Numbered from the stretch's first letter, positions 4,822-46,033 are shown. The stretch: 64,000 bases of DNA from Patescibacteria group bacterium (GCA_040384565.1 JAZKJC010000005.1:76796-140795), one strand, 5' to 3'. Notes: a model not told the origin generated them from the letters alone. A program made the numbers and translations.

Positions 4822-4846
4822 AGTAGGCTTAGTTTAACATTTGCAG

Positions 4847-6649: not shown

Positions 6650-6672
6650 ATTAATTCCTTATTCTACGGTTA

Positions 6673-8454: not shown

Positions 8455-8471
8455 TTAGACTAATAGTAACA

Positions 8472-10301: not shown

Positions 10302-12060
10302 TTTGACGGGTCCATAGGTCGGCGTAGATTTTGCCGTTTCTGATTAGTTCTTTGTGAGTGCCCTCTTCTGCGACTTCTCCATTATCCAGCACTATGATCC
10401 GGTCCATTTTCTGAATGGTGCTCAGGCGGTGGGCAATTACTATTGTGGTGCGGCCCTCCATAAGTTTCCATAGAGCGTCTTGAATGAATGCTTCTGACTC
10501 TGAATCCAGGGCACTGGTGGCTTCGTCCAAGACTAATATAGGAGCATTCTTTAACATTGCTCGGGCAATAGCGATACGCTGGCGTTGGCCTCCAGAAAGT
10601 TTGACGCCACGTTCACCAACCAGGGTGTCATAGCCTTTGGGTAGCTTCACGATGAACTCGTGGGCGTGTGCCATCTTGGCAATTTCCTCGATTTCCTGTT
10701 GGCTGGCATTGGGCCGGCTGTAGGCAATGTTTTCGGCTAGTGTACGATGGAATAGCAAAGGTTCCTGCGGCACATAGGCAATATGGCGGTGCAGGTCATC
10801 TTGAGTAATTGAGCGGATGTCCTGTCCGTCAATACTGATTGATCCACTGTCAATATCGCTGTAACGCAACAAGAGCCAGGATAGGGTGGTTTTGCCTGAT
10901 CCGGAATGACCAACCAGCCCGATTTTTTCTCCGGCTTTGATATGCAGGTTAATGCGTTTGAACAGGGCGTTGTTGTTCTCGGCATGCGTGAATGACATGC
11001 TAGCTATTTTTATGTCACCACGAACAATCCGGACTTCTTGCGGATCATCAGGATCTTTAATACTAGGTTCAATGTCCAGAATTTTTATCATATCGCTGGC
11101 ATCACCCAGGGCACGGTTATAGTTGCGCAGTACATTTTGAAACTCCCAAAGCCTTTGACCAATGTTGGCGGTGTAGTTGACTATTAAAAACAAAGTGGCT
11201 ATATCGGCCTTATAGACACCTGCGCCAATTATGGCAATGGCCATGGAAGTCACCCCTATACTCGAAGTTATCATGCTCGAATAGGTTTCGCGAATCATCG
11301 TAGCGCTAATTGAACGGTGTCCCATGTTTTTGGTGTGCGTGGCTGACTGCCAGTAACGTTTGGTTTCGTGTTGGCTAGCCGAAAAGCTTTTGACTGCCAT
11401 GACATTGGTAATGCTATCGGCCAGGTTACCGGTTTGTTTACTTTGGGCTTCGGCTTCCAGCGTGTTAGCCTCACGAACTGGCTTAGAAAAATGCACTGCT
11501 CCGACAATATAGATAATTGCCAGTGTTATGAGGGCAAAAGCGAATAGAGGTACCCGTGGTGCCAAGATTGCAATCGTAGCTAGCAGGGCAATCATAAGCG
11601 TATACAGGCTAAAAACAGTTGCGTCTACAAAACGCACATAAGCTCCCGTTAGCTTATTAGATTGTGATACCAGTGAGCCGGCAAAGCGATTAGCATGGAA
11701 ACCGGCACTCATTTGCATAAGGTGATCAAAAATACGCTGGGAAATATCCCGAACAACTCTTACCTCGAGATTCCATATTAGCCAAATATTAAGACGCCAA
11801 ACAGCCACGCCGCTCATGAAAGTCGCAATGCCATAAGCCACAATATATGGGCCAAAACTGCCCCATACGTTGGCATGGTCATAGTTACCTTGACTAATTT
11901 TTTGCAAAACCAAGGACATAATATATGGCACCAGAAAATCTAGCATTAATATAGCTAGGGGTATGGTGAAAATAAGCGGTACCATAAGGCGCTTATACTG
12001 AGCCGCATGATGCCAGAAAAGACTAATGGTCTTCCGGGTAGTAGAAGATGAATTTTTCAT
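10279..12060 (-). CDS. ABC exporter, fused permease/ATPase, paralog 4 (first gene of the minus-strand array)
   Basis: Walker A GHSGSGKTT, signature LSGGQRQRIAIARA, Walker B ILVLDEATSALD, tail WTRQSGGFLDE. Confidence 0.9.
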   Translation of the reverse strand: MKNSSSTTRKTISLFWHHAAQYKRLMVPLIFTIPLAILMLDFLVPYIMSLVLQKISQGNYDHANVWGSFGPYIVAYGIATFMSGVAVWRLNIWLIWNLEVRVVRDISQRIFDHLMQMSAGFHANRFAGSLVSQSNKLTGAYVRFVDATVFSLYTLMIALLATIAILAPRVPLFAFALITLAIIYIVGAVHFSKPVREANTLEAEAQSKQTGNLADSITNVMAVKSFSASQHETKRYWQSATHTKNMGHRSISATMIRETYSSMITSSIGVTSMAIAIIGAGVYKADIATLFLIVNYTANIGQRLWEFQNVLRNYNRALGDASDMIKILDIEPSIKDPDDPQEVRIVRGDIKIASMSFTHAENNNALFKRINLHIKAGEKIGLVGHSGSGKTTLSWLLLRYSDIDSGSISIDGQDIRSITQDDLHRHIAYVPQEPLLFHRTLAENIAYSRPNASQQEIEEIAKMAHAHEFIVKLPKGYDTLVGERGVKLSGGQRQRIAIARAMLKNAPILVLDEATSALDSESEAFIQDALWKLMEGRTTIVIAHRLSTIQKMDRIIVLDNGEVAEEGTHKELIRNGKIYADLWTRQSGGFLDE

Positions 12061-17815: not shown

Positions 17816-17869
17816 GACTTCTCGTTATAACATTACTCGTCAATAATTACCAGTTGATTTTAAAAAAAC

Positions 17870-18408
17870 CTTGCCAAACCTCCCACAATATTGTATATTC
17901 AAACAACATGGAACGAAACATTATGGAGACAAGCGTACAAGTTGAAGCTGAATCTGGTGTAGCGGGCTTAGGAGTAATTACTAAGCTTACTGTACTTGGC
18001 TTAGCCGTTGTATTACTACCCAGAATGTTCATGGGTGGTGATGACCTACCCAAACCACCTACCGCTGCCACTGAAGCCTTAGCACCTGCTGGCGTAGATT
18101 TGTCACCTGAAGATGAGATAGTCGTACCTACTACTGCCACCACTACCCTCCCGCTAGAAACAGCACCCCCAGACACTGCAGCTCCAGAGGCACCACCCAC
18201 CTCAGCTACCACAGCCAAGACAACCGTAACAACCCGAGTCCGCAGCACTACTACGACAAAACCAAAGCCCGCCACCACTGCCAAGCCTACAGCCACCACA
18301 ACTCAACCAACAACTACCGCTCCCGCCATTACGGCCGCACCTCCTACAACAGCATCAACGGCCGCTCCGACTACTACGATGGCTCCGACTACTACAACTA
18401 CTCTTAGC
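17870..18408 (+). repeat. Copy A of a perfect 539-bp direct repeat
   Basis: Base-for-base identical to 19740-20278 (offset 1870 bp) in my reading. The first mismatch is at 18409 versus 20279. Confidence 0.9.
17871..17899 (+). promoter_or_regulatory. Sigma70-like promoter of MERN-family gene 1
   Basis: TTGCCA (17871-17876), 17-nt spacer, TATATT (17894-17899). The ATG follows 8 nt later with no Shine-Dalgarno sequence. Confidence 0.55.
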
Positions 18409-18837
18409 CCACAAGTGATAGCGCGCAATCAGGATTTGGCCGTAGAATCAGAAGTTGCTCAGATGCTAGCTTCAATTAAGACTCAACCTAAGACAATGGT
18501 AGTTGACACATGTCCGCTCTATGATCTTCAAAGAATTATTGACGGCCGACACTTGGTGTTAAGTGGCCTTATACCTTATGTAAAAAACAATACTCGGTAT
18601 TTTGTGGGATGGAATAGCTCAAATAATAATGCTGCCGTAGCAATACGTGAACAGTTTGTGGATGGTACGCAATACAAAATTACGTTTCCCAGTAATGGCA
18701 GAAGCCGTGAAGAAGATCCTGATATAGTGTGCGGTTTGCAATCCAGAATTGTCCAATATGACCCAGGAGATAAGAAAGTATATGGCGTACTGCCAGATGT
18801 GCATCGGGGACTCGTTGGCTTAGTTGTAGAGCCTTAG
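17908..18837 (+). CDS. MERN-family membrane-anchored surface protein 1 (TM anchor, Thr/Pro-rich stalk, Cys-pair C-terminal domain)
   Basis: I chose the start at MERNIMETS because both paralogs start there; the track's 17854 start would run through the promoter. It has the TM segment GLGVITKLTVLGLAVVLL, a T/P/A-rich region of roughly 130 aa, and a C-terminal domain with DTCPLY...IVCGLQSRIVQYDP. Confidence 0.75.
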   Translation: MERNIMETSVQVEAESGVAGLGVITKLTVLGLAVVLLPRMFMGGDDLPKPPTAATEALAPAGVDLSPEDEIVVPTTATTTLPLETAPPDTAAPEAPPTSATTAKTTVTTRVRSTTTTKPKPATTAKPTATTTQPTTTAPAITAAPPTTASTAAPTTTMAPTTTTTLSPQVIARNQDLAVESEVAQMLASIKTQPKTMVVDTCPLYDLQRIIDGRHLVLSGLIPYVKNNTRYFVGWNSSNNNAAVAIREQFVDGTQYKITFPSNGRSREEDPDIVCGLQSRIVQYDPGDKKVYGVLPDVHRGLVGLVVEP

Positions 18838-18856
18838 TAAATTACGACAAAAACAC

Positions 18857-18885
18857 TTGCATATAAAACAAGTATATGGTATATT
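18857..18885 (+). promoter_or_regulatory. Sigma70-like promoter of MERN-family gene 2
   Basis: TTGCAT (18857-18862), 17-nt spacer, TATATT (18880-18885), with the ATG 9 nt downstream. The geometry matches that of the other two paralogs. Confidence 0.5.
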
Positions 18886-18894
18886 TGAACAATC

Positions 18895-19710
18895 ATGGAG
18901 AGAAATGTAACGGCAGAAAACGAAGCTGGTGGAGCATTAACTAAGCTAGTAGGTTTATTTGCACTGTTCGCAACTGTTGGTGCAGTAGCCGGCTGGCAGT
19001 ATCTAGGCAAAGGCATAGACAAAACAACTGATGCGAGCAGAACGGCATTTGATAAAGCGGCAGAGAGCCCAACATCGATACCAGAAGTTACGTCAACTAC
19101 GACTGAGCCACCAGAAGAGGAAGAAATGCTTGCCACTACAACTACAACAAAGAAAACGGTTTCCACTACTAAAGTACCTGTAACTAAAGTACCTGTAACC
19201 ACTTCTATTAAGTCTCCCACAACAACGTCGTCAACGGCTCCCGCAGTTACCTCATCAACGACTACTGTATCAACTACAACAAAAGTTCCTACACCAGGTG
19301 AAAGGGCATACTCCCAAGCCCAGAATTTATATCAGCAGGTCAGGGGTGGAACCCGCCCAATAAGAACAATAGATAGTTGTAGGATATTGGAAGTGAATGT
19401 TACTGGCACAAACCCAGGAAACTTTATGCTCAAGGAAGTCGTATTGTTTGACGTCGGAAGTAATACGGCTGTTTTAGGCGGCTGGGTTGATGATGATAAC
19501 GCGCCTAATCACGGCGAACCGATCATTGTAGGCCATAACGCTACGATTATCTCTGACGCGCAGCAATCCACAGATCGGAAATATTGTGGGCCTCAGTCAA
19601 AGATACTGTTTTATGACCCGGCAAATACTCACCTTGAAGGACTAATCCCTGAAGCGTCTGATTTGCCCGCAGAGAAAACACCGGTCGGTACAGCTGAAAA
19701 AATCGGCTAA
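18895..19710 (+). CDS. MERN-family membrane-anchored surface protein 2
   Basis: It starts MERNVTAENE, has the TM segment LTKLVGLFALFATVGAVAG and a Thr-rich stalk. The C-terminal domain has DSCRILEV...KYCGPQSKILFYDP, aligning with paralog 1. Confidence 0.75.
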   Translation: MERNVTAENEAGGALTKLVGLFALFATVGAVAGWQYLGKGIDKTTDASRTAFDKAAESPTSIPEVTSTTTEPPEEEEMLATTTTTKKTVSTTKVPVTKVPVTTSIKSPTTTSSTAPAVTSSTTTVSTTTKVPTPGERAYSQAQNLYQQVRGGTRPIRTIDSCRILEVNVTGTNPGNFMLKEVVLFDVGSNTAVLGGWVDDDNAPNHGEPIIVGHNATIISDAQQSTDRKYCGPQSKILFYDPANTHLEGLIPEASDLPAEKTPVGTAEKIG

Positions 19711-19739
19711 ACTCATTCAAAACAATAGAATATTATTTA

Positions 19740-20278
19740 CTTGCCAAACCTCCCACAATATTGTATATTCAAACAACATGGAACGAAACATTATGGAGAC
19801 AAGCGTACAAGTTGAAGCTGAATCTGGTGTAGCGGGCTTAGGAGTAATTACTAAGCTTACTGTACTTGGCTTAGCCGTTGTATTACTACCCAGAATGTTC
19901 ATGGGTGGTGATGACCTACCCAAACCACCTACCGCTGCCACTGAAGCCTTAGCACCTGCTGGCGTAGATTTGTCACCTGAAGATGAGATAGTCGTACCTA
20001 CTACTGCCACCACTACCCTCCCGCTAGAAACAGCACCCCCAGACACTGCAGCTCCAGAGGCACCACCCACCTCAGCTACCACAGCCAAGACAACCGTAAC
20101 AACCCGAGTCCGCAGCACTACTACGACAAAACCAAAGCCCGCCACCACTGCCAAGCCTACAGCCACCACAACTCAACCAACAACTACCGCTCCCGCCATT
20201 ACGGCCGCACCTCCTACAACAGCATCAACGGCCGCTCCGACTACTACGATGGCTCCGACTACTACAACAGCTCCTACG
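19740..20278 (+). repeat. Copy B of the perfect 539-bp direct repeat
   Basis: Identical to 17870-18408. It includes the promoter (19741-19769) and codons 1-167 of the CDS starting at 19778. Confidence 0.9.
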
Positions 20279-20737
20279 ACAACTACCACTACTAGACCGC
20301 CTACTCCGTTAGAAAAGGCAAATAATTATGCAGCTTCGCTTATAAGTCAAATCCGGCAGAATCCTAATCTGGGCGTAGCTACACGAGCTAATAACTGCTT
20401 AGTGTATAAATGGGTAGATACTGCAGGAGGGCGATTACATGTTGCCGACCCCATAAGATATCGTTCAGAATCCGCAGGACGAAGTGTCTTGTATCTCATT
20501 AGCTGGAATGAACAATTTGAAAGCAAACTAGTTGCTGTTGATGCCACTGATCCTGCCGACAAAAGCCCTTACACAATCAGTACAATAGAACAAATAAATA
20601 CGGTACCTACCCCTTATTGCGGAGAAAATATCCCCAGAACACTTACATTTGCAGGAGAATATAACCGAGTGTGGGGAACTTATGCGGACAGCACAACAAG
20701 TGATACGCGTCTTGTCGGTGTTGCGAGCCCTCTATAG
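19778..20737 (+). CDS. MERN-family membrane-anchored surface protein 3
   Basis: The first 167 codons are identical to gene 1. The C-terminal domain then diverges but keeps the two Cys positions (NNCLVYKW...PYCGENIPRTLTF). Confidence 0.75.
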   Translation: MERNIMETSVQVEAESGVAGLGVITKLTVLGLAVVLLPRMFMGGDDLPKPPTAATEALAPAGVDLSPEDEIVVPTTATTTLPLETAPPDTAAPEAPPTSATTAKTTVTTRVRSTTTTKPKPATTAKPTATTTQPTTTAPAITAAPPTTASTAAPTTTMAPTTTTAPTTTTTTRPPTPLEKANNYAASLISQIRQNPNLGVATRANNCLVYKWVDTAGGRLHVADPIRYRSESAGRSVLYLISWNEQFESKLVAVDATDPADKSPYTISTIEQINTVPTPYCGENIPRTLTFAGEYNRVWGTYADSTTSDTRLVGVASPL

Positions 20738-21545: not shown

Positions 21546-22394
21546 TTAGGTGCTGGGATCGGGCACTATGCCCGCATCCACCGTTAGCTTTTCAAACTGG
21601 CATTCTTGAACGGGTTTGGCATTAATGGTGATGTTACTATCAGCATTTTTGATATCTTTTATTTTATCAGTGAGTCTTGTCTTGTACGGACGGGCCGCGG
21701 AAGCTGTTGATGCAGTTGATGACCTGTCGATAGTTAGAGTTTTTAGGTTTGGCATTAATGCTTTTATGTCTTCTGCAAGGCCGTCATCGTACAGCTTTCT
21801 AATCTTAGCGGCTTCTGCTGTTTTGCCCTCCGGATAGATAAGGCATTCCGCAGCTGTGGCACTAGCCGCACTGCTAAGCTGCCACAGGTTATTAATAAGA
21901 TCACCGGGAGCACTCTTCTTGCAGGCTCCCCAGTCGCCTTTATATGTCTGGGTGGCCTTTTTTGCCAGGTTAAACCGCGGATTAAACAGCTCATAGTTGC
22001 CACTTACTGTAGCAGTCGCGTCATACCTGCCTTCACTGTCCGGTTCTGATTTTTTGACCGTAACATCGCCCATGTGTATGACTGATTCTGCTTCAAACGG
22101 GAGATTCAAACCGACAGTAAAATCACAATCAATAAATGCTGGCCGGTTATCAAAATAGCGCGCGCTAACGGGTACCACACCAGTAATCTTCCCAACTGCA
22201 AAGGCACTCAGCTTGAATACCGTAGCACTCGGTAATTCCAGTTCCGGAACATTCCTGGCGGCTTCGCGTTCGTCGTAGTTATAAAAAACTACGCTGCCAA
22301 TCTCTCTTTCAAAACCGGGCTTATTACCAAGCGCGAAAGACTCCGCGGTTAGGGCGCCGACTGCGAAAGCAAATGCGGCGAGCTTGCTGGTCAT
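21546..22394 (-). CDS. Hypothetical secreted four-Cys protein, paralog B (282 aa)
   Basis: It has the signal-like N-terminus MTSKLAAFAFAVGALTAESFA. It shares KLSAFAVGKITG, four Cys positions and a C-terminal QECQFEKLTV with the upstream gene. Confidence 0.65.
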   Translation of the reverse strand: MTSKLAAFAFAVGALTAESFALGNKPGFEREIGSVVFYNYDEREAARNVPELELPSATVFKLSAFAVGKITGVVPVSARYFDNRPAFIDCDFTVGLNLPFEAESVIHMGDVTVKKSEPDSEGRYDATATVSGNYELFNPRFNLAKKATQTYKGDWGACKKSAPGDLINNLWQLSSAASATAAECLIYPEGKTAEAAKIRKLYDDGLAEDIKALMPNLKTLTIDRSSTASTASAARPYKTRLTDKIKDIKNADSNITINAKPVQECQFEKLTVDAGIVPDPST

Positions 22395-22396
22395 AA

Positions 22397-23239
22397 TTAC
22401 TTTTCCTCCTGGTTCGGAGATAAACTTAGGCTTAACACCTTAAAATCTGTAAATTCGCAGTTGGTAGTTGGTGTACTGGTAATCTCGGTTTTCCCTTGCG
22501 ATTGCTGTTCTAGAACTACTCCTAGTTTTTTTGTATGCGGCGAGCTAGCTGGGTCGATTGCGGGGGGTATATGGATGTTAACAATAGCGGCTTTTGGGTG
22601 AGCGACTTTAACAATATCAGTCATGCTTTCTGTAACAGATGTCTGAAATTCTGGTTTAGCGAGTATACAGTCGCCCACAGTGTCGGCTGTGGCTTGTGCG
22701 ACTGGGTTCATGTCGCGCACTAGGTTAAGGCCATTGCTCACTTTGCAGTTTCCAAAACCGTAGCCTATATCGGCTTTGCTTTTAGAGAGATCGATCCCGG
22801 AGGCAATGACCGGAGGCTTATTTAAAGTAACATCTACCGTAGAGCGGTCCGGGCTTTCTACCACCGTGATATCTGACGCTCTCGCCGCAATGACCGTTCC
22901 GACTGCCGCGTATTTATTGGTTACATTTACTTCGCAGCCCAATCTATCAAATGTTCCGCTGACGGTAAATTCCGAGGTCGCTAGTCCGGTTATGAATGCG
23001 CTAAATTTGCTGACTCTGGCAGTCGGAGGGCCAATATCAATAGTTTTTTTGGCATTGGATTTATATTCAAATCCTAGGCCTGTTGCTTTCCCCGAGACTT
23101 CACCAGCAGCGTCAACTACGAACGGAAACCCGATAACACCAATAAAATTAAGAGATGCAATCGCAAGCCCGCCCATGGCAGCATTAAACCCGGCTGTGTA
23201 TGCTAAACTCCCACCAAATCTCTCAACTAATCTATTCAT
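22397..23239 (-). CDS. Hypothetical four-Cys envelope protein, paralog A (280 aa)
   Basis: It has a hydrophobic N-terminus. It shares KFSAFITGLATS, four Cys positions (GCEV, GNCKV, GDCIL, TNCEF) and an overall length matching 21546-22394. Only 2 nt separate the two genes. Confidence 0.65.
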   Translation of the reverse strand: MNRLVERFGGSLAYTAGFNAAMGGLAIASLNFIGVIGFPFVVDAAGEVSGKATGLGFEYKSNAKKTIDIGPPTARVSKFSAFITGLATSEFTVSGTFDRLGCEVNVTNKYAAVGTVIAARASDITVVESPDRSTVDVTLNKPPVIASGIDLSKSKADIGYGFGNCKVSNGLNLVRDMNPVAQATADTVGDCILAKPEFQTSVTESMTDIVKVAHPKAAIVNIHIPPAIDPASSPHTKKLGVVLEQQSQGKTEITSTPTTNCEFTDFKVLSLSLSPNQEEK

Positions 23240-24401: not shown

Positions 24402-24536
24402 TCCAGTAGTTATACCAGCTAGGGGCATAATTATTCAACAAACATTCACTGAAGTATATTTTACTATGAAAGTAGATTGACAATAAGTATAATTTCCATG
24501 TAATCTATAGAAACGTAGCGCTTATAGGAGCTTATC

Positions 24537-27059
24537 GTGGAAATTGGTCCCGACTACTTTCTGCCATCAGAGCAGAGAATCGTCCATCAAGATAAAGATA
24601 ATTCTGGAGTTGAACCAGGGGGTGTAATTAAGTGGGTTGCTACTGGCTTGTCCGGAGTTATGGGTCTCGCATTTATACCTGAAGTTACGCTTATGAGGCC
24701 CTCAGAAAGAACTGAAGTTTTGTCTGTCGGCGCTGGGAGTGAGTTAGCATGGGGTTACGCGACTATGCGGGCTAGTGATGCAGCCCCTGAAGTACTGTTA
24801 CCGGCAGCACAAGCTATTGAGTTATCTCAGCGGGTTGTGGCTGATATGGAGGGCGCACTAAGCGTGGTAGCAGCAAGCTCGCCAGTCAAACCAATAGCTG
24901 CTGCCAAGCAAGCTGCCCGTACGGCTTCTGAGTTAGAACAAGCCGCTCCAATCCAAGTGGCAAGAATGTCTGAACCGGGTCAAATGCGTCCAATAGCCGT
25001 AGCCGCTTCTTCCTCTAGGCCGGCAACGGTGATTAGGTCATCTGCACCTGCCGTCGAATCAGTAGCTTTATCTGCTCAGCATATTGTGTCCACAAAGCCG
25101 ATAGTTATGAGCATAAGGCCCAAAATGAGCGAAGCATCTGAGGCAGCTTTTGAGCCGAATACAGACAAAACGTTAAAAATAGCTGCAGCTGGCGAACGGC
25201 TTCCCGTACTAACCGCGGTGGAAACAAAGCTTGCGGCAGCTCCGCTGTCTAGTGTTACTGCTGCCACTATGCAGGAATCACCGCATTCTATAGCAGGCAG
25301 ATCATTTGTCTTGCCGATGGATAAACCGCGTAAGACAAGTGATTACGGGATGCGAGGTGGCCGCCTGCATGCAGGTGTTGACTTAGCGGATATGCATCGG
25401 GACAAGAATCCCCGTGTTAAGTCGGTAGAAAGTGGCACAGTTATAGAAGCAGGTATAAACGGCGCATTCGGGAAATACGTACGCGTTAGGCATGGCACAG
25501 ATGAGACGGGAAGAATTGTAGATACCGAGTATGCTCACTTAAGCCGTATTGATGTGCGGGAGACTCAAATTGTTGAGCAGGGACAACAAATAGGCCTTAT
25601 GGGTAATACAGGAGCTTCCAGGGGGGGGCACCTTCATTTCGGAGAGATTTGGGTGGATGGAACACATAAAAATGGTCGCCGCGTAAACCCAAACCTTTCT
25701 TTAGCCGGACGGATTTTCCCTGGTGCTGTTGTACTTGAATCAGGTGTCAGCTCTGTTCCCGCGGTAGCCGTTGAAGCCGTGGAACCTGATGTTGCTACCC
25801 AAGCCGAAACGGCAGAGTCCGCAGTTAAGGCAATTGCGGGGATAATGAGTATATCGCCGGAATCAGCCAGGATGTCACGTGCTTCGGAGCAGATTTTCTC
25901 AACCCTTTCCGGCTTAACAGTACGGCCGGTGGTCCCCAAAATAATTCAGTATCACAATGGAGACCGGCGTAATCGGCGTGGCGGCTCCCAGAGCAGCTCT
26001 GCTCCACCTGCACCGAATATGTCCGAATCACCCGAGGATGGTTTTGCGGCTAATGATGGTGCCGCAGGCGTAATGCCAATCGCTCCCAGAATACCGCAGA
26101 ACGGACAATCAGGTTCTGCTCATGAGGGATCAACCCCAGTGCCAAATACTCTCCCCACTACGGGTCCAGCGGTAACGCCACAGTCACCGAGCGGTGAAGT
26201 TGCTCCGAGCGCTCAACCGCCCCAAGCTTTCACTGGAGAACAAGCGCCTGGGCACAATGAAGATAAGAATGACAAAGAAAAGAAAGTTCCTCCGCCTAGA
26301 ATGTCCGAAGCATCGGAAGAGCTCTTTGCGGCACTTGGTGAAGGTACCGCTTTTGCTTTGGCTCTTGAGGCAGCTGAAGGAACTGGCCCTGCAGCCAATA
26401 ATGGTAATTTGCCGGTGCAGCCGGAAGCACCTCGCTCAGGCCCGGAAGCTCCAGCTATTGCCAGACTATTCACTCCGCAGGTAGTAAAACAGATGCTACC
26501 GAACGCTCCGCCGGGAAATATCGACAAGTATCTGCCTTTAATATTGGATGCCTTGCATGAATTTGGCCTGGATGACAGACAGATGGTGTTGTTCACATTA
26601 GCAACTACCGCTCCAGAAACCCCTGGCTTTGAACCTATATCAGAACGTTCAGATGGTTCCAGATATGATCCCGACCCTTCTATTAACCCTAGTGCAAAAC
26701 GGCGTGCAGTAGCTGTAAGAAACGGTAACACAACCAAGGGCGATGGTTATCGATATAGGGGAAGAGGCTTTGAGCAATTAACTTGGAAGAATAGCTACAG
26801 AGCATATGGCGATATTATTGGAGTCAACCTTGTAGACAATCCTGATCTCGCAAATGATCCACGTAACGCGGCTCGTATTATGGCGGCCTTTATAAAAGCC
26901 CGTGAAAGTCGTATCCGAGCCGGGTTGAACCGGAATGACACTAGGGATCCCCGCGCGGCTATTAATGGCGGTTCAAATGGCCTAAGCTTGTTCACAACAA
27001 CATATCAAAGAGGTATGTCCATTACGGATGAGCTGATTAGGTCTGGCCAGCCAGGCTAG
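24537..27059 (+). CDS. Membrane-anchored bifunctional peptidoglycan hydrolase: M23 (LytM) endopeptidase plus GH19-like lysozyme/chitinase domain
   Basis: GTG start preceded by AGGAG, with the N-terminal TM segment WVATGLSGVMGLAFI. M23 motifs: HAGVDLA, YAHLS, GNTGASRGGHLHFGE. After an Ala/Pro-rich linker the C-terminal region has the GH19-type pattern APETPGF...GDGYRYRGRGFEQLTWKNSY...DNPDLA...INGGSNGL. Confidence 0.8.
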   Translation: MEIGPDYFLPSEQRIVHQDKDNSGVEPGGVIKWVATGLSGVMGLAFIPEVTLMRPSERTEVLSVGAGSELAWGYATMRASDAAPEVLLPAAQAIELSQRVVADMEGALSVVAASSPVKPIAAAKQAARTASELEQAAPIQVARMSEPGQMRPIAVAASSSRPATVIRSSAPAVESVALSAQHIVSTKPIVMSIRPKMSEASEAAFEPNTDKTLKIAAAGERLPVLTAVETKLAAAPLSSVTAATMQESPHSIAGRSFVLPMDKPRKTSDYGMRGGRLHAGVDLADMHRDKNPRVKSVESGTVIEAGINGAFGKYVRVRHGTDETGRIVDTEYAHLSRIDVRETQIVEQGQQIGLMGNTGASRGGHLHFGEIWVDGTHKNGRRVNPNLSLAGRIFPGAVVLESGVSSVPAVAVEAVEPDVATQAETAESAVKAIAGIMSISPESARMSRASEQIFSTLSGLTVRPVVPKIIQYHNGDRRNRRGGSQSSSAPPAPNMSESPEDGFAANDGAAGVMPIAPRIPQNGQSGSAHEGSTPVPNTLPTTGPAVTPQSPSGEVAPSAQPPQAFTGEQAPGHNEDKNDKEKKVPPPRMSEASEELFAALGEGTAFALALEAAEGTGPAANNGNLPVQPEAPRSGPEAPAIARLFTPQVVKQMLPNAPPGNIDKYLPLILDALHEFGLDDRQMVLFTLATTAPETPGFEPISERSDGSRYDPDPSINPSAKRRAVAVRNGNTTKGDGYRYRGRGFEQLTWKNSYRAYGDIIGVNLVDNPDLANDPRNAARIMAAFIKARESRIRAGLNRNDTRDPRAAINGGSNGLSLFTTTYQRGMSITDELIRSGQPG

Positions 27060-27123: not shown

Positions 27124-28020
27124 TTAGGGAGTCTTAGGCGCAGCTGGGACTTCAAATGGTTCTAGAGGTTGGTCAAGACCTTTACAATCGGTTGGGGCTT
27201 CAAAAGTGCCTCCACGTACGTTGACTACAACACCATCATTGAAATCTCGCTCAACGTCTTTAAAAAAGGCTTTAGCACGGTCATCATCTATATTTTCATA
27301 CTGCGTATCATCAGCCGCTCTTGCCCAGGCATTAAAAGGGTATTCGTCTTTGTCTTGGGCAAAAGTTACGGTTATTGTCTGGTCTTTTGGCGCACACTCA
27401 ATGGTACCATCAGTACTTCTCCAACGGCTGGACTCAGTTGTTGGAGCTGGCAGAGTAACTGGGGATAGGCTGGTGGTTGTAGCAGCAGCCGGTTGTGTGG
27501 TTGCACTAGAGTCTTCTCCCTCTACTCTATCTACACCTGATCCGGAAGCTGAGGCTACATTAGTATCACCAAAATGTATATTGCTTGTCAAAGCAGATAA
27601 CCCAACTAAAGCAAGCACGCCCACAAAAGCACCCGCTAAGATCCTTTGTCCGTCCCGGCGCATGGCTTCACTTCTGACTGCTAAGACAGTTTTTGTTACT
27701 TCACGTCTTGGAGGAGCAACATGTCCTTTAGGGGTCTTTTTTTCCGCTTCCACAAATACGATCGGAGTAGACAATTCTTTTTTTAAGTTCGCTAAATCAC
27801 TCTTGGTTTTAGACCCGAGCCCTAATGTAAGAATCCGCCATTTAATTGGACCATAGGTATCTCTATCACTTGGGAATCGTGTACGAAAAGTCCTCTCATT
27901 AGTAAGATTGCCTGTTAATCTTTCTGGGGGACGGTTAATATGACTACCCGTTCCTGGGCGCCTTGTTTCTGTTGTTACTCTTCCACCTTTTTGATACATA
28001 TCCATAGTACTAAACCTCAC
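27124..28020 (-). CDS. Hypothetical single-pass envelope protein (298 aa)
   Basis: It has a basic N-terminal tail, the TM segment ILAGAFVGVLALVGLSALTS, a Thr-rich linker and a C-terminal domain with two Cys. A 216-aa antisense ORF exists; I preferred the minus strand because its architecture matches its neighbours and fits the operon context. Confidence 0.55.
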   Translation of the reverse strand: MRFSTMDMYQKGGRVTTETRRPGTGSHINRPPERLTGNLTNERTFRTRFPSDRDTYGPIKWRILTLGLGSKTKSDLANLKKELSTPIVFVEAEKKTPKGHVAPPRREVTKTVLAVRSEAMRRDGQRILAGAFVGVLALVGLSALTSNIHFGDTNVASASGSGVDRVEGEDSSATTQPAAATTTSLSPVTLPAPTTESSRWRSTDGTIECAPKDQTITVTFAQDKDEYPFNAWARAADDTQYENIDDDRAKAFFKDVERDFNDGVVVNVRGGTFEAPTDCKGLDQPLEPFEVPAAPKTP

Positions 28021-28080: not shown

Positions 28081-29361
28081 CTACCTTACGCGGACTCGCT
28101 GCACACGTTTAGCTACATCAGTTACTTTTCTGGCAGCCCGTGGTAACCGGCCATTGCGGGGCTCTGGAGGCTTGATTGCCGTGAATCCGGTTGCAGTAAA
28201 TCTTTCAAATGGAAAGGTGCTGGCAATCTTATGCTCGCCTGCGTCAATCGGTACTGCCACGCTACTATCTACTCCAGTTTCATCAGCCATGTGCGTATCA
28301 TCTGGGGGCTCAAGCGGTGTTTGAGGGCTGTGTTTAAGTTCACCTTTATCATCCGGTTCATCTACTGTGATAACTTCAGCAGTATTTGAGCTACCTTCAT
28401 GATCAATATAGTGAGCCAACAATAGGGCCATAGGGTGGAACTCAATCGGTTCAACCACTTCCTGTGCTTCTACTATCACGCTCGGCAAAGGATATTCCCC
28501 ATATTTTGGATCAAAGGAATTACGCCCATCGACAAAGAGCACGCCATCAGCGTCTAAGCCTAGATAGAGCTGATAATCCGCTCTATCCTCCGCAATTATG
28601 GGCAGTTCATCACGGCCTATAGGTTGTATTATTGGATGCTCCACATCCGGATCGTACCGAACACCATGCATCCTTAGCACTTCATCAGCAGTGGGGGTAG
28701 CCAGAGTAACGCCCCAGCCACTGGGAGTGTTCGGGTCAAAAAAACTTTGGTCTCCTATCATGACGCTCCGTATACCACTGCCATTTTCACCATCTGCCTC
28801 TTGTCTTGCCATTGCCATGAGCTGTTCCAGGGTTTCTCTTCTAGAGCCGTCAGACCCATCGGCAAAATGTGAGTTATTTAGCAGGCCGCCGACTACTGTT
28901 TCAAGATTACGGTGGCCAGCAACTCCTACAAACAAAGGCGAAAGTTCCCTGACACGGTCGGCATCCAGATCTTCTTGCAAGGCTTTTGTTGTTATACGGC
29001 TAGCATAGGCCGGATCATCAGTGCCGTTAGGAACAACTACTTTCAGGCATGCTATAACGCCTACACCGAAACTTGCTTCTATAGGGATCGGCTGCCCATC
29101 AATAAAGCGGGTACCTTCTGCTAAAAGTAACGGCATAGCAGTCGTATCTAAAGCAACAGTTTCACGGCCAGTCTGGACGAATTGCTGCATATAAGCGTCT
29201 TCAAAGCCTGCTTCTCCAGGAAGCATAGGAACTGATATGCACCGGCTATTCGAACCATCAACCAGCGTTTGCCCGTGCACGTAATCAGGCGACAAAGCAG
29301 CATCAGTACTTGCAGAGTCTGGCTTAAACATCTCGGCTAGGGAATGAGGAGTTTTTATCAT
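28081..29361 (-). CDS. Hypothetical soluble acidic protein (426 aa)
   Basis: Long ORF whose start overlaps the upstream stop by 4 nt (ATGA at 29358-29361). I saw no TM segment, Walker motif or other recognisable motif. Confidence 0.6.
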   Translation of the reverse strand: MIKTPHSLAEMFKPDSASTDAALSPDYVHGQTLVDGSNSRCISVPMLPGEAGFEDAYMQQFVQTGRETVALDTTAMPLLLAEGTRFIDGQPIPIEASFGVGVIACLKVVVPNGTDDPAYASRITTKALQEDLDADRVRELSPLFVGVAGHRNLETVVGGLLNNSHFADGSDGSRRETLEQLMAMARQEADGENGSGIRSVMIGDQSFFDPNTPSGWGVTLATPTADEVLRMHGVRYDPDVEHPIIQPIGRDELPIIAEDRADYQLYLGLDADGVLFVDGRNSFDPKYGEYPLPSVIVEAQEVVEPIEFHPMALLLAHYIDHEGSSNTAEVITVDEPDDKGELKHSPQTPLEPPDDTHMADETGVDSSVAVPIDAGEHKIASTFPFERFTATGFTAIKPPEPRNGRLPRAARKVTDVAKRVQRVRVR

Positions 29362-31541
29362 GAGCCAAGTCCTAATTGCTCCGGTAGATTATTGCGCTTC
29401 ACTGGCCGGCCAATATTACGGGCTACTTTGGTTTCGCTGTCCGGCTGCTGTCCCGAGCGCCAGCTTAGTACCTTATGTCCATGCAACAATACGCCGGATA
29501 AAGCGACTTCGCTTTCAGATAAAGGTTCGCCTGTGGGTTCGTACTGACCCTCTAAACCCTTCAGCGTTGCTTTATCATATCCCAGCTTATTCTTTTTTGC
29601 GGCGATATCGCTTCTGGTGGCTATTGTTCGATGAACGCGCACCGACTGTCCATCTGCCGTTCGGACAAACAACACGCCGTCGCCTTCGGCAATTGAATCT
29701 TTTACTTTTGTATGTATTTTTGGCCCTGAGCGGGAATTAACCCGTTGGATTCGGGTTGGAGCGAACCGGCGTTGCAAAGGCTGTTCGGTAAGCATTTCTA
29801 CAAGTGTGGGATGGTAGGGTAGTGCCGCTGGCTGGGTTTCAAAATAATTCATTCCTTCATTTAATACTCTAAGCAGTCTTCCAGGGGCAGCAAGGGCATC
29901 AACAATGAGGAATTTGCGTTTTCGCATATCACCATGTTTGGAAGTTACCTCCACATGGGCGGCAAGCCCAAACATCATATTTTCTTTATGCGGATTCCAG
30001 AATGATTGTAATAACTCCTCAATATAATAACCATGAGGCGCGGAGTGGGGCATAACGTCTCCGTCTCTGTACACCACAGTGCCCTTTATGCCAGCTTTAT
30101 CAGGATCCGTTTCATTCATCGATATACGTCTAAACAGTTCATTGCCCTGAGTAGCTTCCATAATAAATCTGACGTCAAAAGGAAGCTTGCTGTATTTGAT
30201 ACTTACTCCAGACGCGTCCATTTCATAAGCTTCGTCATGCAAAGTTTTAGTTGGGTCCTCCGCGTCATAGAGGTCACGGAAAAATTCTATATCAAATGGA
30301 TCCATGCCCCTTAAAAAGGCGCGCATAGGATTCGGGATCCTAACGTTTTTTATATCTTCTATGGCTTGTACGTAGCCTTTGGATTGCTCTACGTGGTGGC
30401 CGTATCCTAGTGCTTGCATGACTGCCCGCCGGATGTTGTCGCGGCGGTTTTCTATACGGGCAAGCTCGTGGTCCAGTTGGGCTCTGGAAGCTTGTTTTGC
30501 TTCATCATCCTCTGCCGGCTTATGCTTATAATCTGCCTTTATTGCCGCTTCTTTCCGGTCTTCTGTGAGCATGGCATTATAGCCGCGGCAAGGAATACTC
30601 CAGTCCGCGGGTGTAACACTATGAAATCGGTAAATCTCAATCAGTTTGAGGACAGCAGCGTTGATATTTCTTTTCTTGGCGGTGACATAGTGCGCGGCGT
30701 TATCAAACCGGAAATCTCCTGCTACATGCATATCATGAAATGTCTCCATAAGCGTGTCTACGATTTTTCTGTATCTGTCTTTGTCCTTAAAATCTTCCGC
30801 GAACTCTTCCGCGAAGCGTAAGCCGGCTGCCTTGAGCCAACCCTCTTCCATAGGTGGCACCTCATCTGGATCTATCTGGGATAGTAAGTCCTCTGGCGGG
30901 AGGTCAAGTAACTGAAAATACGCGTCCCAGTGATTAATATCGGTGTCAGCCAGTACGCCGGCTAGCCGCCATTCTCCTTGACCTTTAATGTGATCCATAT
31001 GCCCCAAAGGTCCTGGTGTGTCTTCATCCAATTCGAACACTAGAAGACAGTTACTAAGCTCCTCCAGTACCGTGCCCTTATGTTCTGCTTTGGCCCTCAA
31101 TACGGCCGCCTGGCGGTAAATTTCTCCTTCTGCCCAGTCTTCATCAAGTACCGCATGAATTACTTCTTCGCTTGATCCGCCGCCAGAAAGCGGCCCTATG
31201 CTGGTTCTTTCCGTATGAACACGGCCGTGCACAGCCCAAGCGGGATCCCAGTTTTTAAACTCAACAAGGATTCTAGGAAACGCGACGTCGTGAAACAAGT
31301 CGTCATAGCCTTCGCCTAGCGCAACGTAACCTATTGCCACGGAAGAACGCCACTCCTCCAATGGGCTACGCTCACGTCTCAAAGCGTTTGGATCCACTTG
31401 AGAGGCAGAAAACCTCAACAGCTCCTCATGGGTGAGACCTGCCCCCAGGACTTCCGCAGCGACTGCCGAAGCTGGAGTAACACTACTTTCTGGCGTACCC
31501 ACAGGTGACACTGATGTTCCCGGTGCTTCTACATTTGGCAT
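29358..31541 (-). CDS. Hypothetical soluble protein (727 aa)
   Basis: This is the longest orphan ORF in the window and the first gene of the minus-strand unit. I recognised no nucleotide-binding or catalytic motif. Confidence 0.6.
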   Translation of the reverse strand: MPNVEAPGTSVSPVGTPESSVTPASAVAAEVLGAGLTHEELLRFSASQVDPNALRRERSPLEEWRSSVAIGYVALGEGYDDLFHDVAFPRILVEFKNWDPAWAVHGRVHTERTSIGPLSGGGSSEEVIHAVLDEDWAEGEIYRQAAVLRAKAEHKGTVLEELSNCLLVFELDEDTPGPLGHMDHIKGQGEWRLAGVLADTDINHWDAYFQLLDLPPEDLLSQIDPDEVPPMEEGWLKAAGLRFAEEFAEDFKDKDRYRKIVDTLMETFHDMHVAGDFRFDNAAHYVTAKKRNINAAVLKLIEIYRFHSVTPADWSIPCRGYNAMLTEDRKEAAIKADYKHKPAEDDEAKQASRAQLDHELARIENRRDNIRRAVMQALGYGHHVEQSKGYVQAIEDIKNVRIPNPMRAFLRGMDPFDIEFFRDLYDAEDPTKTLHDEAYEMDASGVSIKYSKLPFDVRFIMEATQGNELFRRISMNETDPDKAGIKGTVVYRDGDVMPHSAPHGYYIEELLQSFWNPHKENMMFGLAAHVEVTSKHGDMRKRKFLIVDALAAPGRLLRVLNEGMNYFETQPAALPYHPTLVEMLTEQPLQRRFAPTRIQRVNSRSGPKIHTKVKDSIAEGDGVLFVRTADGQSVRVHRTIATRSDIAAKKNKLGYDKATLKGLEGQYEPTGEPLSESEVALSGVLLHGHKVLSWRSGQQPDSETKVARNIGRPVKRNNLPEQLGLGS

Positions 31542-34334: not shown

Positions 34335-35905
34335 ATGATATTCTTACTCGCAAACTTAAAGATGTGCCCAAGACTCCGGGGGTGTATTTTCATAAAAATG
34401 CTAAGGGGCAGATTATTTATGTGGGCAAGGCGGCGGTGTTGCGTAACCGGGTACGGCAATATTTTCAGGCCAGCCGGAGCCGTGATCCCAAGACTGAGGC
34501 GCTGGTAGCGGAAATTGCTGATGTCGACTGGATGGAAGTAGAGACTGAACTGGACGCGTTGTTTTTGGAGGGCGAGTTAATCAGGCGCTATATGCCGCCA
34601 TATAATATTCTGCTTCGTGATGATAAATCGTTTGTGTATATTCGGATAGACGAAGCCAGTGATTATCCAACCGTCACTACAACCCGCCGGCCGCTAGATG
34701 ACGGTGCCAAATACTTCGGGCCTTACTTAAGCGTCATGAGTGTGCGGCAAGCGCTGAAACTGCTGCGCAGAGTTTTCCCGTTTGCTGTTCGCCGTGTCCA
34801 GGGCCAAAAACGCGCCTCGCTGTACTATCACCTGGGGCTGGATCCGGGCTTGGAGGACGGCCACACAAACCTGGAAGATTACCGGGCAAATTTGCGCAGA
34901 CTCATAGCGGTTATTGATGGCAAGCGTAAAAACATCGAGCGCGAACTAGAAAAAAACATGAAACAATTTGCGAAAAATTCGCAATTTGAAGAAGCGGCTA
35001 ATGCCAGGAACCAGCTATTTGCGCTGCGGCGGTTAAATCATCAGGTAATATTTAGCGATAAGGAATTTTTGGATATCAGCAAAGACCATGCCCTAAGTGA
35101 GCTTGTGGAACTTTTGGGGCTAGAAAAGTTCCCGAGGCGAATCGAGGGCTATGACATATCGCACATGAGCGGCACTGATGTAGTTGCCAGCATGGTGGTG
35201 TTTGAGAACGGCGTTACCAACAAGGGTGAATATCGTAAATTCAAAACTAAAATAAATCAAAACGACGATTTTTACAATATGAACGAAACTATCAAACGCC
35301 GTTTAAGTGATAAAAACCTAAAAGCCTGGGGCAAGCCAGACCTAATGCTGATAGATGGTGGCAAAGGCCAGCTGGATGCCGCCATCCGCGCCCGCGACGC
35401 TGCCGCTAATGTACAAGGTTCAACCTTGTACATACCAATTATTGGGCTGGCTAAGCGGGAAGAACAGATTGTGATTCAGAAAAAGAAAGTGAGCAAAGAG
35501 CAAAGAGCAAAGAGCGGTGAGGGGGCACTAGAGCCTATAATTAGCCTAAATGATGAGGTGCTCCACAAGTTGGGCGGGTTTAAAACTGAGTCAGACGATT
35601 TTATACTGATAAATCTGCCCCACAGCACAAACTTAATCAAGCTATTGCAGAGAATTAGGGATGAGTCGCACAGATTTGCAGTTAGTTACCACTCAGTTTT
35701 GAAAGTAAAACGCCAGACAGCCAGTATGCTTGATGAGATTCCTACGATTGGTCCAAGTACGCGCAAAAAGCTTATACTGACTTTTGGTAGCATGAGGGGA
35801 TTGTTACAGGCGCGGGAAATGGAAATAGAAAAAACGATCGGAGTTAAAAAAGCAGCCATTCTAAAACAATATTTAAAACCCATAAGACAAGAGTCCAAAA
35901 GATGA
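34331..35905 (+). CDS. uvrC: Excinuclease ABC subunit C
   Basis: GIY-YIG N-terminus PGVYF...IIYVGKA..LRNRV..YF, a UVR domain, an endonuclease region (DGGKGQL, LLQRIRDESHRFA) and a C-terminal HhH region. I took the ATG at 34331, which overlaps the upstream TGA. Confidence 0.9.
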   Translation: MNDILTRKLKDVPKTPGVYFHKNAKGQIIYVGKAAVLRNRVRQYFQASRSRDPKTEALVAEIADVDWMEVETELDALFLEGELIRRYMPPYNILLRDDKSFVYIRIDEASDYPTVTTTRRPLDDGAKYFGPYLSVMSVRQALKLLRRVFPFAVRRVQGQKRASLYYHLGLDPGLEDGHTNLEDYRANLRRLIAVIDGKRKNIERELEKNMKQFAKNSQFEEAANARNQLFALRRLNHQVIFSDKEFLDISKDHALSELVELLGLEKFPRRIEGYDISHMSGTDVVASMVVFENGVTNKGEYRKFKTKINQNDDFYNMNETIKRRLSDKNLKAWGKPDLMLIDGGKGQLDAAIRARDAAANVQGSTLYIPIIGLAKREEQIVIQKKKVSKEQRAKSGEGALEPIISLNDEVLHKLGGFKTESDDFILINLPHSTNLIKLLQRIRDESHRFAVSYHSVLKVKRQTASMLDEIPTIGPSTRKKLILTFGSMRGLLQAREMEIEKTIGVKKAAILKQYLKPIRQESKR

Positions 35906-36615
35906 GGGGTATACTGATAAGAATTATGTGGCCATTAATTGTAATAATCGCCGGATTGCTACTGATAGGAAGTATACGAATTTTGATAGTTAAAAGGTCG
36001 GTTACAACATATAAAAATTATTGGAATAAACTTGCCGAAACGTCGTATCCAACCAGTAGCTTATTGTATGTAGCTTTAGGTGATTCTGCTGCGCAGGGTA
36101 TAGGCGCTAGTAAACCCCAGAAAGGCTATGTGGGGCTGATAGCTTCAGAGCTGGAAACTCAATATGGCAACTCAGTCCGGGTGATAAATCTCAGCTTTAC
36201 CGGAGCAAAAGTCCAGGATGTAATTAATGAACAACTACCAGCGCTTAAAAAGCTGCCTATAGATAAAAATACAATCATAACCTTAGGTGTTGGAGCAAAC
36301 GATACCGGCAATTTTGAGGAATCCAAATTCCGCGTGCAAATTGAAAACCTATTTTCGCAACTTCCCGCGCAAACAATCGTAGCTGATATACCATACTTTG
36401 GTGGCGGGCGGCACAATAAACGTGAGCAGTCAGCCATTAACGGATCAGTAATCATTCGTGAAAGTGCTCAAAAAAACGGAATTAAGGTGGCTGATTTGCA
36501 TGACATAACTAAACTTCGTGATGATCTAAGTACTTACGCCGTAGACTTTTTCCATCCCAATGACAAAGGCTACCGTAATTGGTATGAAGCCTTTAGACAA
36601 CCGCTAAACCTTTAG
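35902..36615 (+). CDS. SGNH/GDSL-family hydrolase
   Basis: N-terminal TM segment, block I ALGDSAAQG, block III GVGANDT, block V DFFHPND. Confidence 0.75.
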   Translation: MRGILIRIMWPLIVIIAGLLLIGSIRILIVKRSVTTYKNYWNKLAETSYPTSSLLYVALGDSAAQGIGASKPQKGYVGLIASELETQYGNSVRVINLSFTGAKVQDVINEQLPALKKLPIDKNTIITLGVGANDTGNFEESKFRVQIENLFSQLPAQTIVADIPYFGGGRHNKREQSAINGSVIIRESAQKNGIKVADLHDITKLRDDLSTYAVDFFHPNDKGYRNWYEAFRQPLNL

Positions 36616-37884: not shown

Positions 37885-38256
37885 ATGATCATGAACAATA
37901 GACCAATTGGGCGGCTCTTTTTGCGTTGGTTTATTTGTAGCCTAGGTCTATGGGTAGCGGCTGGTTTGCTGGGGCAGGGCATAAATTACGATAGCCGCAT
38001 AGGCGTTATTTTAGTTGCCGGTCTTATACTCGCAGCCGTAAACGCTATCATTAAGCCTATTGTAGTGATCCTGTCATTACCAGCTATTCTGTTCAGCCTT
38101 GGGCTATTCATGATAGTTATTAATGGCTTGATGGTACTGTTGGTAAGTAAATTGTATTCTGGCCTGGAGGTTACAAATTTCGGGGCTGCAATGCTTGCCG
38201 GAATGGTTATAGGCTTGGTAAACTACTTAGTGACGACTATATTGGAGGATAAATGA
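37885..38256 (+). CDS. DUF360 / phage-holin-4-like small membrane protein
   Basis: Four hydrophobic segments with AVNAIIKPIVVILSLPAILFSLGLF, typical of the YvlD/DUF360 family. Confidence 0.65.
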   Translation: MIMNNRPIGRLFLRWFICSLGLWVAAGLLGQGINYDSRIGVILVAGLILAAVNAIIKPIVVILSLPAILFSLGLFMIVINGLMVLLVSKLYSGLEVTNFGAAMLAGMVIGLVNYLVTTILEDK

Positions 38257-45900: not shown

Positions 45901-46033
45901 AATAAAAAACCTGCTTCCTATTCTGGTTGTCCCAGACACGTACACCATACGGTCACAGTTTGGAAAGCCGGTCAGGTGTACCTCCTATAGTACTGACACA
46001 GCATAAGCGTCAGAGGCTGTTATAATTGCAGAT

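Follow-up and report, generated by a model that had tools for sequence, protein, structure and literature searches.

A predicted two-activity peptidoglycan hydrolase with M23 and GH19-like heads and long spacers on a Patescibacteria chromosome

PrgK (pCF10), TraG (pIP501), and CwlT (ICEBs1) are N-terminally anchored proteins that join a glycan-cleaving domain to a peptidase and open peptidoglycan locally (PMC12102498), and the LysA proteins of mycobacteriophages place a peptidase and a GH19 muramidase in one polypeptide, with extensive domain shuffling (PMC3314691). In MepM, ShyA, ShyC, and DipM, an M23 domain at the C-terminus follows an N-terminal anchor. All of them resemble in part the 840-aa product of a gene in a 64-kb stretch of DNA from a Patescibacteria group bacterium (hereafter, the window), in which an M23 peptidase head and a GH19-like glycosidase head follow a single N-terminal hydrophobic segment and are set apart by long spacers. 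This protein is very probably an exported bifunctional peptidoglycan hydrolase. The reading preferred here, that it acts mainly in cis on the wall of the cell that produces it, is evenly poised, and the sequence cannot decide between that wall and the wall of a host as the target.

The gene starts with a GTG codon and occupies exactly the position given by the original prediction, which had been made from the sequence alone and had described a membrane-anchored fusion of an M23 endopeptidase and a GH19-like muramidase. The protein is 100% identical to the NCBI entry 'MAG: peptidoglycan DD-metalloendopeptidase family protein [Patescibacteria group bacterium]'. An assembly artefact was ruled out, as the same protein is found in an NCBI contig of a metagenome-assembled genome (MAG) and in a Logan assembly, and its layout is common to the relatives P0069 and P0103. 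The GC content at third codon positions (GC3) is 0.40, compared with 0.39-0.50 for the housekeeping neighbours, and with this native value the compositional signal of a recent horizontal transfer is absent. The gene and its product are made up of the following features (the region as a whole holds no more sigma-70-like sites than its shuffles):

24466..24493, + strand: candidate sigma-70-like promoter (ATGAAA-16-TATAAT) 5' of the hydrolase gene, a consensus match only
24526..24530, + strand: Shine-Dalgarno sequence AGGAG, 6 nt 5' of the GTG start, a strong ribosome-binding site
24537..27059, + strand: 840-aa open reading frame (ORF) of the predicted bifunctional peptidoglycan hydrolase, stop codon included
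24537..24620, + strand: aa 1-28, an acidic N-terminus (net charge -4) that presumably lies in the cytoplasm
24621..24686, + strand: hydrophobic segment, aa 29-50 (GVIKWVATGLSGVMGLAFIPEV), a candidate signal-anchor or uncleaved/cleaved signal peptide
24687..25268, + strand: spacer 1, aa 51-244, rich in Ala/Ser/Pro/Val, with the first linker-motif copy and motifs resembling RP.P(I/V)AA
25269..25721, + strand: Peptidase_M23 domain, aa 245-395 (H278, D282, H334, H365, H367)
25722..26459, + strand: spacer 2, aa 396-641, rich in Pro/Ala/Ser/Glu, with linker-motif copies at aa 446, 495, and 589
26460..27056, + strand: GH19 endolysin-type glycosidase domain, aa 642-840 (putative acid E694, base E703, and water-coordinating T749, with Q747, G742-R743-G744, and Y710)
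25125-25151 (aa 197-205), 25872-25898, 26019-26045, and 26301-26327, + strand: four copies of the linker motif MS(E/R)(A/S)(S/P)E..F, at aa 197, 446, 495, and 589

The M23 head matches the Pfam family Peptidase_M23 (PF01551) over aa 277-382 (E=3.7e-21, 75.6 bits vs a cut-off of 28.7), and its motifs HAGVD (H278, D282), YAH (H334), and HLH (H365, H367) align with those of ShyA, TagE, zoocin A, and 9gy1. The zinc-ligand pattern HxxxD plus HxH (H278/D282, H365/H367) and the catalytic histidine H334 are all present, and the active site is thus intact in all five residues, as had been predicted. The closest relatives of this head in NCBIfam are MepM, ShyA/C, and DipM. Because the catalytic residues and the fold are intact, the head is expected to cleave peptide cross-links in a zinc-dependent manner.

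The GH19 head is less evident from Pfam, where the model Glyco_hydro_19, which is built largely on chitinases, gives only a partial 40-aa match (aa 736-775) of 23.1 bits, below the cut-off of 25.5; judged by this match alone, the original prediction would have failed on its own terms. Other lines of evidence nevertheless bear out the GH19 pattern proposed for the C-terminus. The family phrog_181 ('endolysin') spans aa 645-828 (E=1.5e-31), the GH19 endolysin of phage SPN1S (4ok7) is matched at 1.3e-9 by phmmer against the PDB, and the nearest database relatives of the domain carry PF00182 or PG_binding_1. In both alignments made of the domain (A1 and A2), E694, E703, and T749 are invariant columns, as are G742-R743-G744 and Q747 of the GRG..Q motif, so that the catalytic glutamates, whose loss would have spoken against the prediction, have been kept. 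Their spacing of nine residues is like that of E49 and E58 in SPN1S. The roles of these residues were assigned from the study in which the catalytic acid, the base, the water-coordinating residue, and the substrate-binding core of GH19 endolysins are defined (PMC8547705). The residue equivalent to the substrate-contacting H48, which is His in 93% of GH19 endolysins (PMC8547705), is Pro693 in this protein and is variable across the GH19-like subfamily to which it belongs.

An AF2 model of aa 642-840 (pLDDT 93.4) has the alpha-helical two-lobe fold of GH19, with a TM-score of up to 0.82. Its top PDB matches in Foldseek are the endolysins 9ms7, 4ok7, 8p8e, and 9eoi (TM-scores of 0.70-0.82), followed by the effector TseP of a type VI secretion system (T6SS) at rank 5 (8xcl) and then by GH19 chitinases. 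Ranks 1-8 and those from 11 onwards are all GH19 endolysins or chitinases, phage endolysins, or TseP, with 7r6s, a 'putative bacteriophage protein', at ranks 9-10. Since the catalytic residues and the fold are intact, the head is predicted to cleave glycan strands, and it would do so as an inverting muramidase rather than as a chitinase because it is closer to endolysins than to chitinases.

Export via Sec is expected from the segment of aa 29-50, the sole hydrophobic segment of the protein. The tethering transmembrane (TM) helix of the original prediction is borne out insofar as one N-terminal hydrophobic segment exists, but the hydrophobicity of this segment is marginal (KD19 = 1.56; Wimley-White -2.5 kcal/mol) and its N-terminal flank is acidic (-4). 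A possible G-L-A cleavage site follows it, and the orthologs P0069 and P0103 hold clearer N-terminal signal peptides, whose last residues are AFA or ALA. That the hydrolase is membrane-tethered is regarded as somewhat probable.

The two spacers comprise approximately 195 and 245 residues, which makes the predicted low-complexity stretch of about 450 residues close to the measured total of ~440, and their richest blocks consist to 72-78% of A/P/S/E/G/V/T/Q. Neither spacer has a homolog among the 173 relatives retrieved. In the full-length AF2 model only the GH19 domain is confident. The low pLDDT of the spacers thus argues only weakly for disorder, since the M23 domain too came out poorly with the shallow alignment. 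The linker motif occurs in four copies in the spacers, while at least two copies were found in none of 20000 shuffles, and two of the four copies fall within helices predicted by the full-length model. At the DNA level the copies are only 70-79% identical and differ in their Ser codons, which rules out recent DNA duplications, and it is because of this divergence that the peptide itself seems to be maintained by selection. The recurrent motif of P0069 and P0103 is (S)RPAP(I/V)AA, of which the protein described here has the weaker forms MRPIAVAA and SRPATVI. Such spacer motifs may serve in docking, processing, or auto-inhibition. A rough polymer estimate of our own, itself inferential, gives a random-coil reach of ~10 nm for the M23 head and ~16 nm for the GH19 head, the contour lengths being far longer. 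This reach is about one envelope thickness of the producer, and the spacers may therefore be needed merely to work through the producer's own wall; by themselves, they imply no action on another cell.

An exhaustive HMMER scan of 1.84 billion representative proteins returned 74 matches with E-values below 1e-30. Every one was made by the C-terminal domain, with identities of 40-50%, in proteins of 190-1857 aa. An M23 domain is also present in six of the best 150 representatives, which have the following architectures:

P0069 and P0103: M23-spacer-GH19, with the order and layout of the protein described here, Pro-rich spacers, and clear signal peptides
P0150: M23 then GH19
P0025: LysM-GH19-M23
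P0108: GDSL-M23-GH19
P0102: GH19-PG_binding-M23-NlpC/P60

The contigs of P0150 and P0102 are too short for gene context. Other relatives join the GH19-like domain to VanY/M15 (P0026, P0027) or to LysM, and on Rhizobium plasmids (H28/H29) it lies within genes annotated as M15 metallopeptidases, so that the pairing of a metallopeptidase with a GH19-like glycosidase is apparently a wider, undescribed module pairing. Among the matches listed from genomes, viral contigs, and metagenomes, none of 242 loci has M23 in the same ORF as the GH19-like subfamily, a count in which the genome-locus pattern left out the FEQLT variant of the query itself and returned loci of other phyla, and in which the listed metagenome loci represent the C-terminal domain only. 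Likewise, no single gene covers both domains among 50,697 phage and 72,556 plasmid records. The fusion of M23 with the GH19-like domain is thus rare, while both component families are well known.

The GH19-like subfamily is broadly cellular, with members in Cyanobacteria, Vampirovibrionales, Acidobacteriota, and Pseudomonadota, and, among the matches listed, 80 genome loci at 38-47% identity stand against only two viral loci at an identity of at least 40%. The closest genome matches (45% identity) include predatory Vampirovibrionales (L007, and L012 from Vampirovibrio chlorellavorus).

Two of the M23 and GH19 fusions are positional orthologs of the gene in the window. They lie in the loci L004 (254 kb) and L005, which have in common with the window the genes of an ABC protein, a rhodanese, UvrC (57-61% identity), a GDSL protein, an M24 peptidase, a holin-family protein, and PBP1a. 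Their architectures are reshuffled to GDSL-M23-GH19 in L004 and LysM-GH19-M23 in L005, and the HxH motif of the M23 domain is degenerate in L004 (GTHFS). Because these syntenic orthologs differ in domain layout, the gene is best described as a conserved feature of its lineage with a repeatedly rebuilt architecture. In the window (35902-36615, +) and in L005 (4340-5074), the GDSL/SGNH esterase has a gene of its own following uvrC, and in L004 (10001-12952) a GDSL domain is fused N-terminally to the hydrolase ortholog, which hints at a functional link between both proteins, for example through peptidoglycan de-O-acetylation ahead of glycan cleavage.

The gene is part of an ordinary chromosome, and not of a phage, a plasmid, or a type IV secretion system (T4SS). 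The window holds five tandem ABC exporters and the genes of L25, a rhodanese, PBP1a, UvrC, the GDSL esterase, an M24 peptidase, LigA, and a histidine kinase, together with seven tRNAs. Genes for a T4SS, type IV pili (T4P), a T6SS, or phage structural proteins have no Pfam match in it, and VirB4, VirD4, VirB6, pilin, and T4P proteins have none either in the 64 kb or in 23 kb of the syntenic L004, although highly diverged ones could hide among the orphans. None of nine neighbouring ORFs matches a PHROG family. The hydrolase itself lacks wall-binding or target-recognition domains (SH3b, LysM, and PG_binding, by Pfam) and domains that mark secreted effectors (PAAR, LXG, MIX, etc., by Pfam and NCBIfam), and no demonstrable immunity or FemABX-type resistance gene adjoins it.

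The immediate surroundings agree with the orphan surface-protein block of the original prediction, as the flanking genes are orphans, mostly N-terminally anchored and some of them in paralog arrays, with nothing significant by Pfam, NCBIfam, or PHROGs. The neighbours that matter for the argument below are:

17854-20737, + strand: paralog array of three orphans with N-terminal anchors or signals (17854, 18895, and 19778; z 11-73)
21546-23239, - strand: paralog array of two orphans with N-terminal anchors or signals (21546 and 22397; z 12)
27124..28020, - strand: convergent (tail-to-tail) neighbour of 298 aa, in which a single TM segment (KD 2.28 at aa 127) joins the cytoplasmic N-terminus to a Cys-bracketed ectodomain
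29358..31541, - strand: 727-aa orphan beside the hydrolase gene, with a 716-aa counterpart in L004 (z = 13.3)

The first and third genes of the array at 17854-20737 share an identical N-terminus (MERNIMETSVQ), and a recent duplication is therefore implied. The 298-aa neighbour, which has a weak match to DUF7261 below the cut-off, is the positional counterpart of a 248-aa gene in L004, although their sequence similarity is marginal (z = 2.5). Such a tail-to-tail gene for a TM segment and an ectodomain follows the hydrolase gene in four loci (27124-28020, -, in the window; 12966-13712 in L004; 3726-4949 in L001; and 3922-5178 in L003), and those of L001 and L003 are clearly homologous to one another. 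The 727-aa orphan finds only itself among 5.8 billion proteins. Together with a co-oriented 426-aa ORF, with which it forms a stop/start overlap (ATGA), it takes up 28081-31541 (-), and neither has a TM segment or a known domain.

Several further observations concern the wider window. The five tandem ABC exporters (3070-12060, -) are paralogs of 583-609 aa with the domains ABC_membrane and ABC_tran, a partial ABC ORF lies at 13-465, and the last of the five genes is also kept in the syntenic L004. A 123-aa protein of the family Phage_holin_4_2 (E=3.7e-24) is encoded at 37885-38256 (+), directly after the M24 aminopeptidase gene and 11 kb from the hydrolase. Because the pair of M24 and holin-family genes is conserved in L004, the latter is taken as chromosomal and not as a prophage remnant, and a link to the control of the hydrolase is conceivable. 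A match to the DUF3800-IX small RNA of Rfam (RF02968; 52 bits vs a gathering threshold of 36.8) lies at 45904-45973 (-), where the GC content is low (0.38-0.40) and small ORFs occur.

Under the preferred reading, the weakly hydrophobic N-terminal segment would direct export and would most likely be retained as a signal-anchor in the membrane of the producer, while the two flexible spacers would give both heads the freedom to work over a restricted zone of wall near the anchor. Cutting both classes of bonds at one spot would open a local hole without dissolving the sacculus. In the producer's own wall this could serve the insertion of new material, the separation of daughter cells or buds, or the making of room for surface structures. 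Action on this wall is favoured because the gene lies on the chromosome next to housekeeping genes, at a position where its orthologs are conserved within the lineage, because its codon composition is native, because an anchor plus M23 is the layout of housekeeping endopeptidases, and because a signature of secretion systems or immunity is absent. The housekeeping type of the M23 relatives in NCBIfam, the mostly cellular GH19-like subfamily, and the export signals of the orthologs point in the same direction.

A number of observations weigh against this reading. We know of no GH19-type lysozyme with a housekeeping role in growth, and the GH19 head has its structural neighbours in phage endolysins and in TseP, an effector of a T6SS. 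The NCBIfam scores of the M23 head are far under the equivalog cut-offs (56.6 vs 341 for MepM, 51.1 vs 700 for ShyC, and 41.4 vs 900 for DipM). Housekeeping enzymes do not usually vary so much in architecture as is seen here, with the swapped order in L005, the degenerate HxH in L004, and the added LysM and GDSL domains, and the gene is embedded among fast-evolving paralog arrays of anchored surface proteins. Moreover, with a marginal anchor and an acidic N-flank, the protein could be released instead, and the reach of the spacers is an estimate and not a measurement.

The most serious alternative, although a possibility of distinctly lower standing, is that a long-tethered surface enzyme opens the peptidoglycan of a host locally at the site of attachment, where cutting both cross-links and glycan would give access to the host membrane and cytoplasm or allow muropeptides to be harvested, and where the tether would prevent runaway lysis of the host. 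The source organism is a member of the Patescibacteria, whose cultivated representatives are all obligate epibionts without many biosynthetic pathways (PMC10633639, PMC11623550), which is counted in favour of this alternative. So are the nearest folds, those of enzymes that breach walls (GH19 endolysins of phages and TseP, the dual effector of a T6SS), the reshuffled architecture among the syntenic orthologs, and the flanking arrays of anchored, very fast-evolving proteins. The GDSL/SGNH esterase of the L004 ortholog makes a third wall-modifying activity plausible, and the recurrent convergent gene for a TM segment and an ectodomain could encode a self-protection factor. However, the hydrolase has neither a targeting or wall-binding domain nor a marker of secretion systems, the putative 'immunity' neighbours lack significant mutual similarity (z = 2.5), and a tether that reaches across about one envelope would bring the heads to the producer's wall first. 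The suggestion in the original prediction that the enzyme works at a distance on a neighbouring wall, in place of routine autolysis, thus has no direct support, and an anchor plus M23 is also the layout of housekeeping enzymes. A literature search also found no report of host-directed activity for a peptidoglycan hydrolase of Patescibacteria. Marginally more doubtful is the specific form of this idea, a surface-tethered long-reach 'drill' that would open the host wall only at cell-cell contact, in which the MSEASE..F and RPxP(I/V)AA motifs and the neighbour with the TM segment and ectodomain would be arms-race adaptations for docking, regulation, or self-protection.

Three other explanations are much less probable. 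The hydrolase could clear a gap in the producer's own wall for the assembly of type IV pili, a T4SS, or another envelope-spanning structure, in the manner of VirB1, PrgK, or CwlT. The T4SS hydrolases of monoderms are indeed anchored in the membrane, with a glycosidase and a peptidase in one protein, and the VirB1 homologs of Patescibacteria often carry Peptidase_M23 or LysM (PMC12102498); in addition, lysozyme-like/CHAP-like and M15-type proteins adjoining virB4 are essential in S. epibionticum. With no T4SS or T4P gene recognised by Pfam in the window or in the 23 kb of L004, and with the T4SS hydrolases of Southlakia belonging to other families (GH73/phage-tail lysozyme, CHAP-like, and M15) rather than being homologs, this explanation is considered unlikely. 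Slightly less likely again is a bacteriocin-like lysin, released upon cleavage of the signal peptide as a free two-headed enzyme that would kill competitors in the manner of lysostaphin and zoocin A. Both of these are among the structural or sequence relatives of the M23 head, the signal peptides of P0069 and P0103 end in AFA or ALA, and the query has its possible G-L-A site, but it lacks a target-recognition domain (SH3b, LysM, PG_binding) and an adjacent immunity or FemABX-type gene, and an acidic N-region of 28 residues is atypical of a cleaved Sec signal.

The least probable explanation, to which hardly any weight is given, is a lysin (endolysin or tail-associated enzyme) of a prophage, either resident or domesticated. 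The two domains match phrog_181 ('endolysin') and several M23 PHROGs of phage tails and tape measures, and a Phage_holin_4_2 family gene is found 11 kb away. Nevertheless, that gene is itself syntenic and stands beside the M24 peptidase gene, and none of the 50,697 phage records has one gene covering both domains. An origin from a prophage or an endolysin cassette was largely ruled out by the PHROG-negative neighbours (none of nine matched), the conserved housekeeping synteny, and the native GC3 and codon composition.

The gene is a testable candidate either for passage through the host wall or for the remodelling of the own wall with a minimal set of enzymes in Patescibacteria. If it acts on hosts, it would provide a way into studying how epibiotic parasitism works and could yield new lysins with two activities, and if the 'drill' proposal holds, Patescibacteria parasitism would have in it the first wall-breaching factor identified outside a T4SS cluster. 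If it is an autolysin acting on the producer's wall, it would provide the first housekeeping role known to us for a GH19-type lysozyme and would illustrate how functions become fused when genomes are reduced. As its parts are well known, the finding is incremental on present evidence.

Compared with the described systems, the protein shares with MepM, ShyA, ShyC, and DipM the catalytic residues of the M23 domain in addition to the anchored layout, whereas these enzymes lack a glycosidase and hold folded regulatory N-domains in place of low-complexity spacers. With the GH19 phage endolysins of SPN1S (4ok7), PWe2 (9ms7), and KTN6 (gp46, 8p8e) it has in common the fold, the Glu-x8-Glu pair, GRG..QLT, and the water-coordinating Thr. 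However, the identity is only 21-24%, and their AQxxHESxGF contrasts with the A-T-x-x-x-E-T..F.P-I-x-E of the subfamily of the query. TseP (8xcl) is likewise a peptidoglycan hydrolase of two activities with a C-terminal lysozyme of GH19-like fold, used against neighbouring bacteria; its reported N-terminal activity is that of an amidase, not of M23. It also differs in being delivered by a T6SS, of which the window has neither genes nor markers. The tail lysin gp13 of phi29 links a lysozyme-like domain and M23 in one protein and breaches the wall from outside. Unlike the query, gp13 is a virion component with a glycosidase other than GH19, a short linker, and the opposite domain order; its M23 endopeptidase part is noted in PMC3314691.

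In the case of mycobacteriophage LysA, Pfam M23 is paired with amidases and not with GH19 (PMC3314691). These are cytoplasmic phage proteins that are built in modules (a peptidase, GH19/GH25/amidase, and a wall-binding domain), are freed via holins, and hold the wall-binding domain at the C-terminus, whereas the query is chromosomal, has an export segment, and lacks a binding domain. PrgK, TraG, and CwlT, on the other hand, have glycosidases of the SLT or GH23/GH73 type rather than GH19, their peptidase is usually of the CHAP or NlpC/P60 type (PrgK carries a LytM/M23-type domain), they are encoded inside T4SS clusters, of which there is none here, and they are devoid of low-complexity spacers of ~200 residues. 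The Patescibacteria epibiont Ca. Southlakia epibionticum likewise has multi-domain peptidoglycan hydrolases, SEML1_0006 and SEML1_0007, both essential in co-culture, but they comprise GH73, phage-tail lysozyme, cysteine-proteinase fold, and M15 DD-peptidase domains and lie next to virB4, and no counterpart with M23 and GH19 was found in the transposon sequencing (Tn-seq) supplements of Southlakia. Against this background, what is unusual about the hydrolase is a trio of features: the union of M23 with a cellular GH19-like subfamily, an anchor with a spacer of ~440 residues in place of a wall-binding domain, and an architecture that has been rebuilt between syntenic orthologs.

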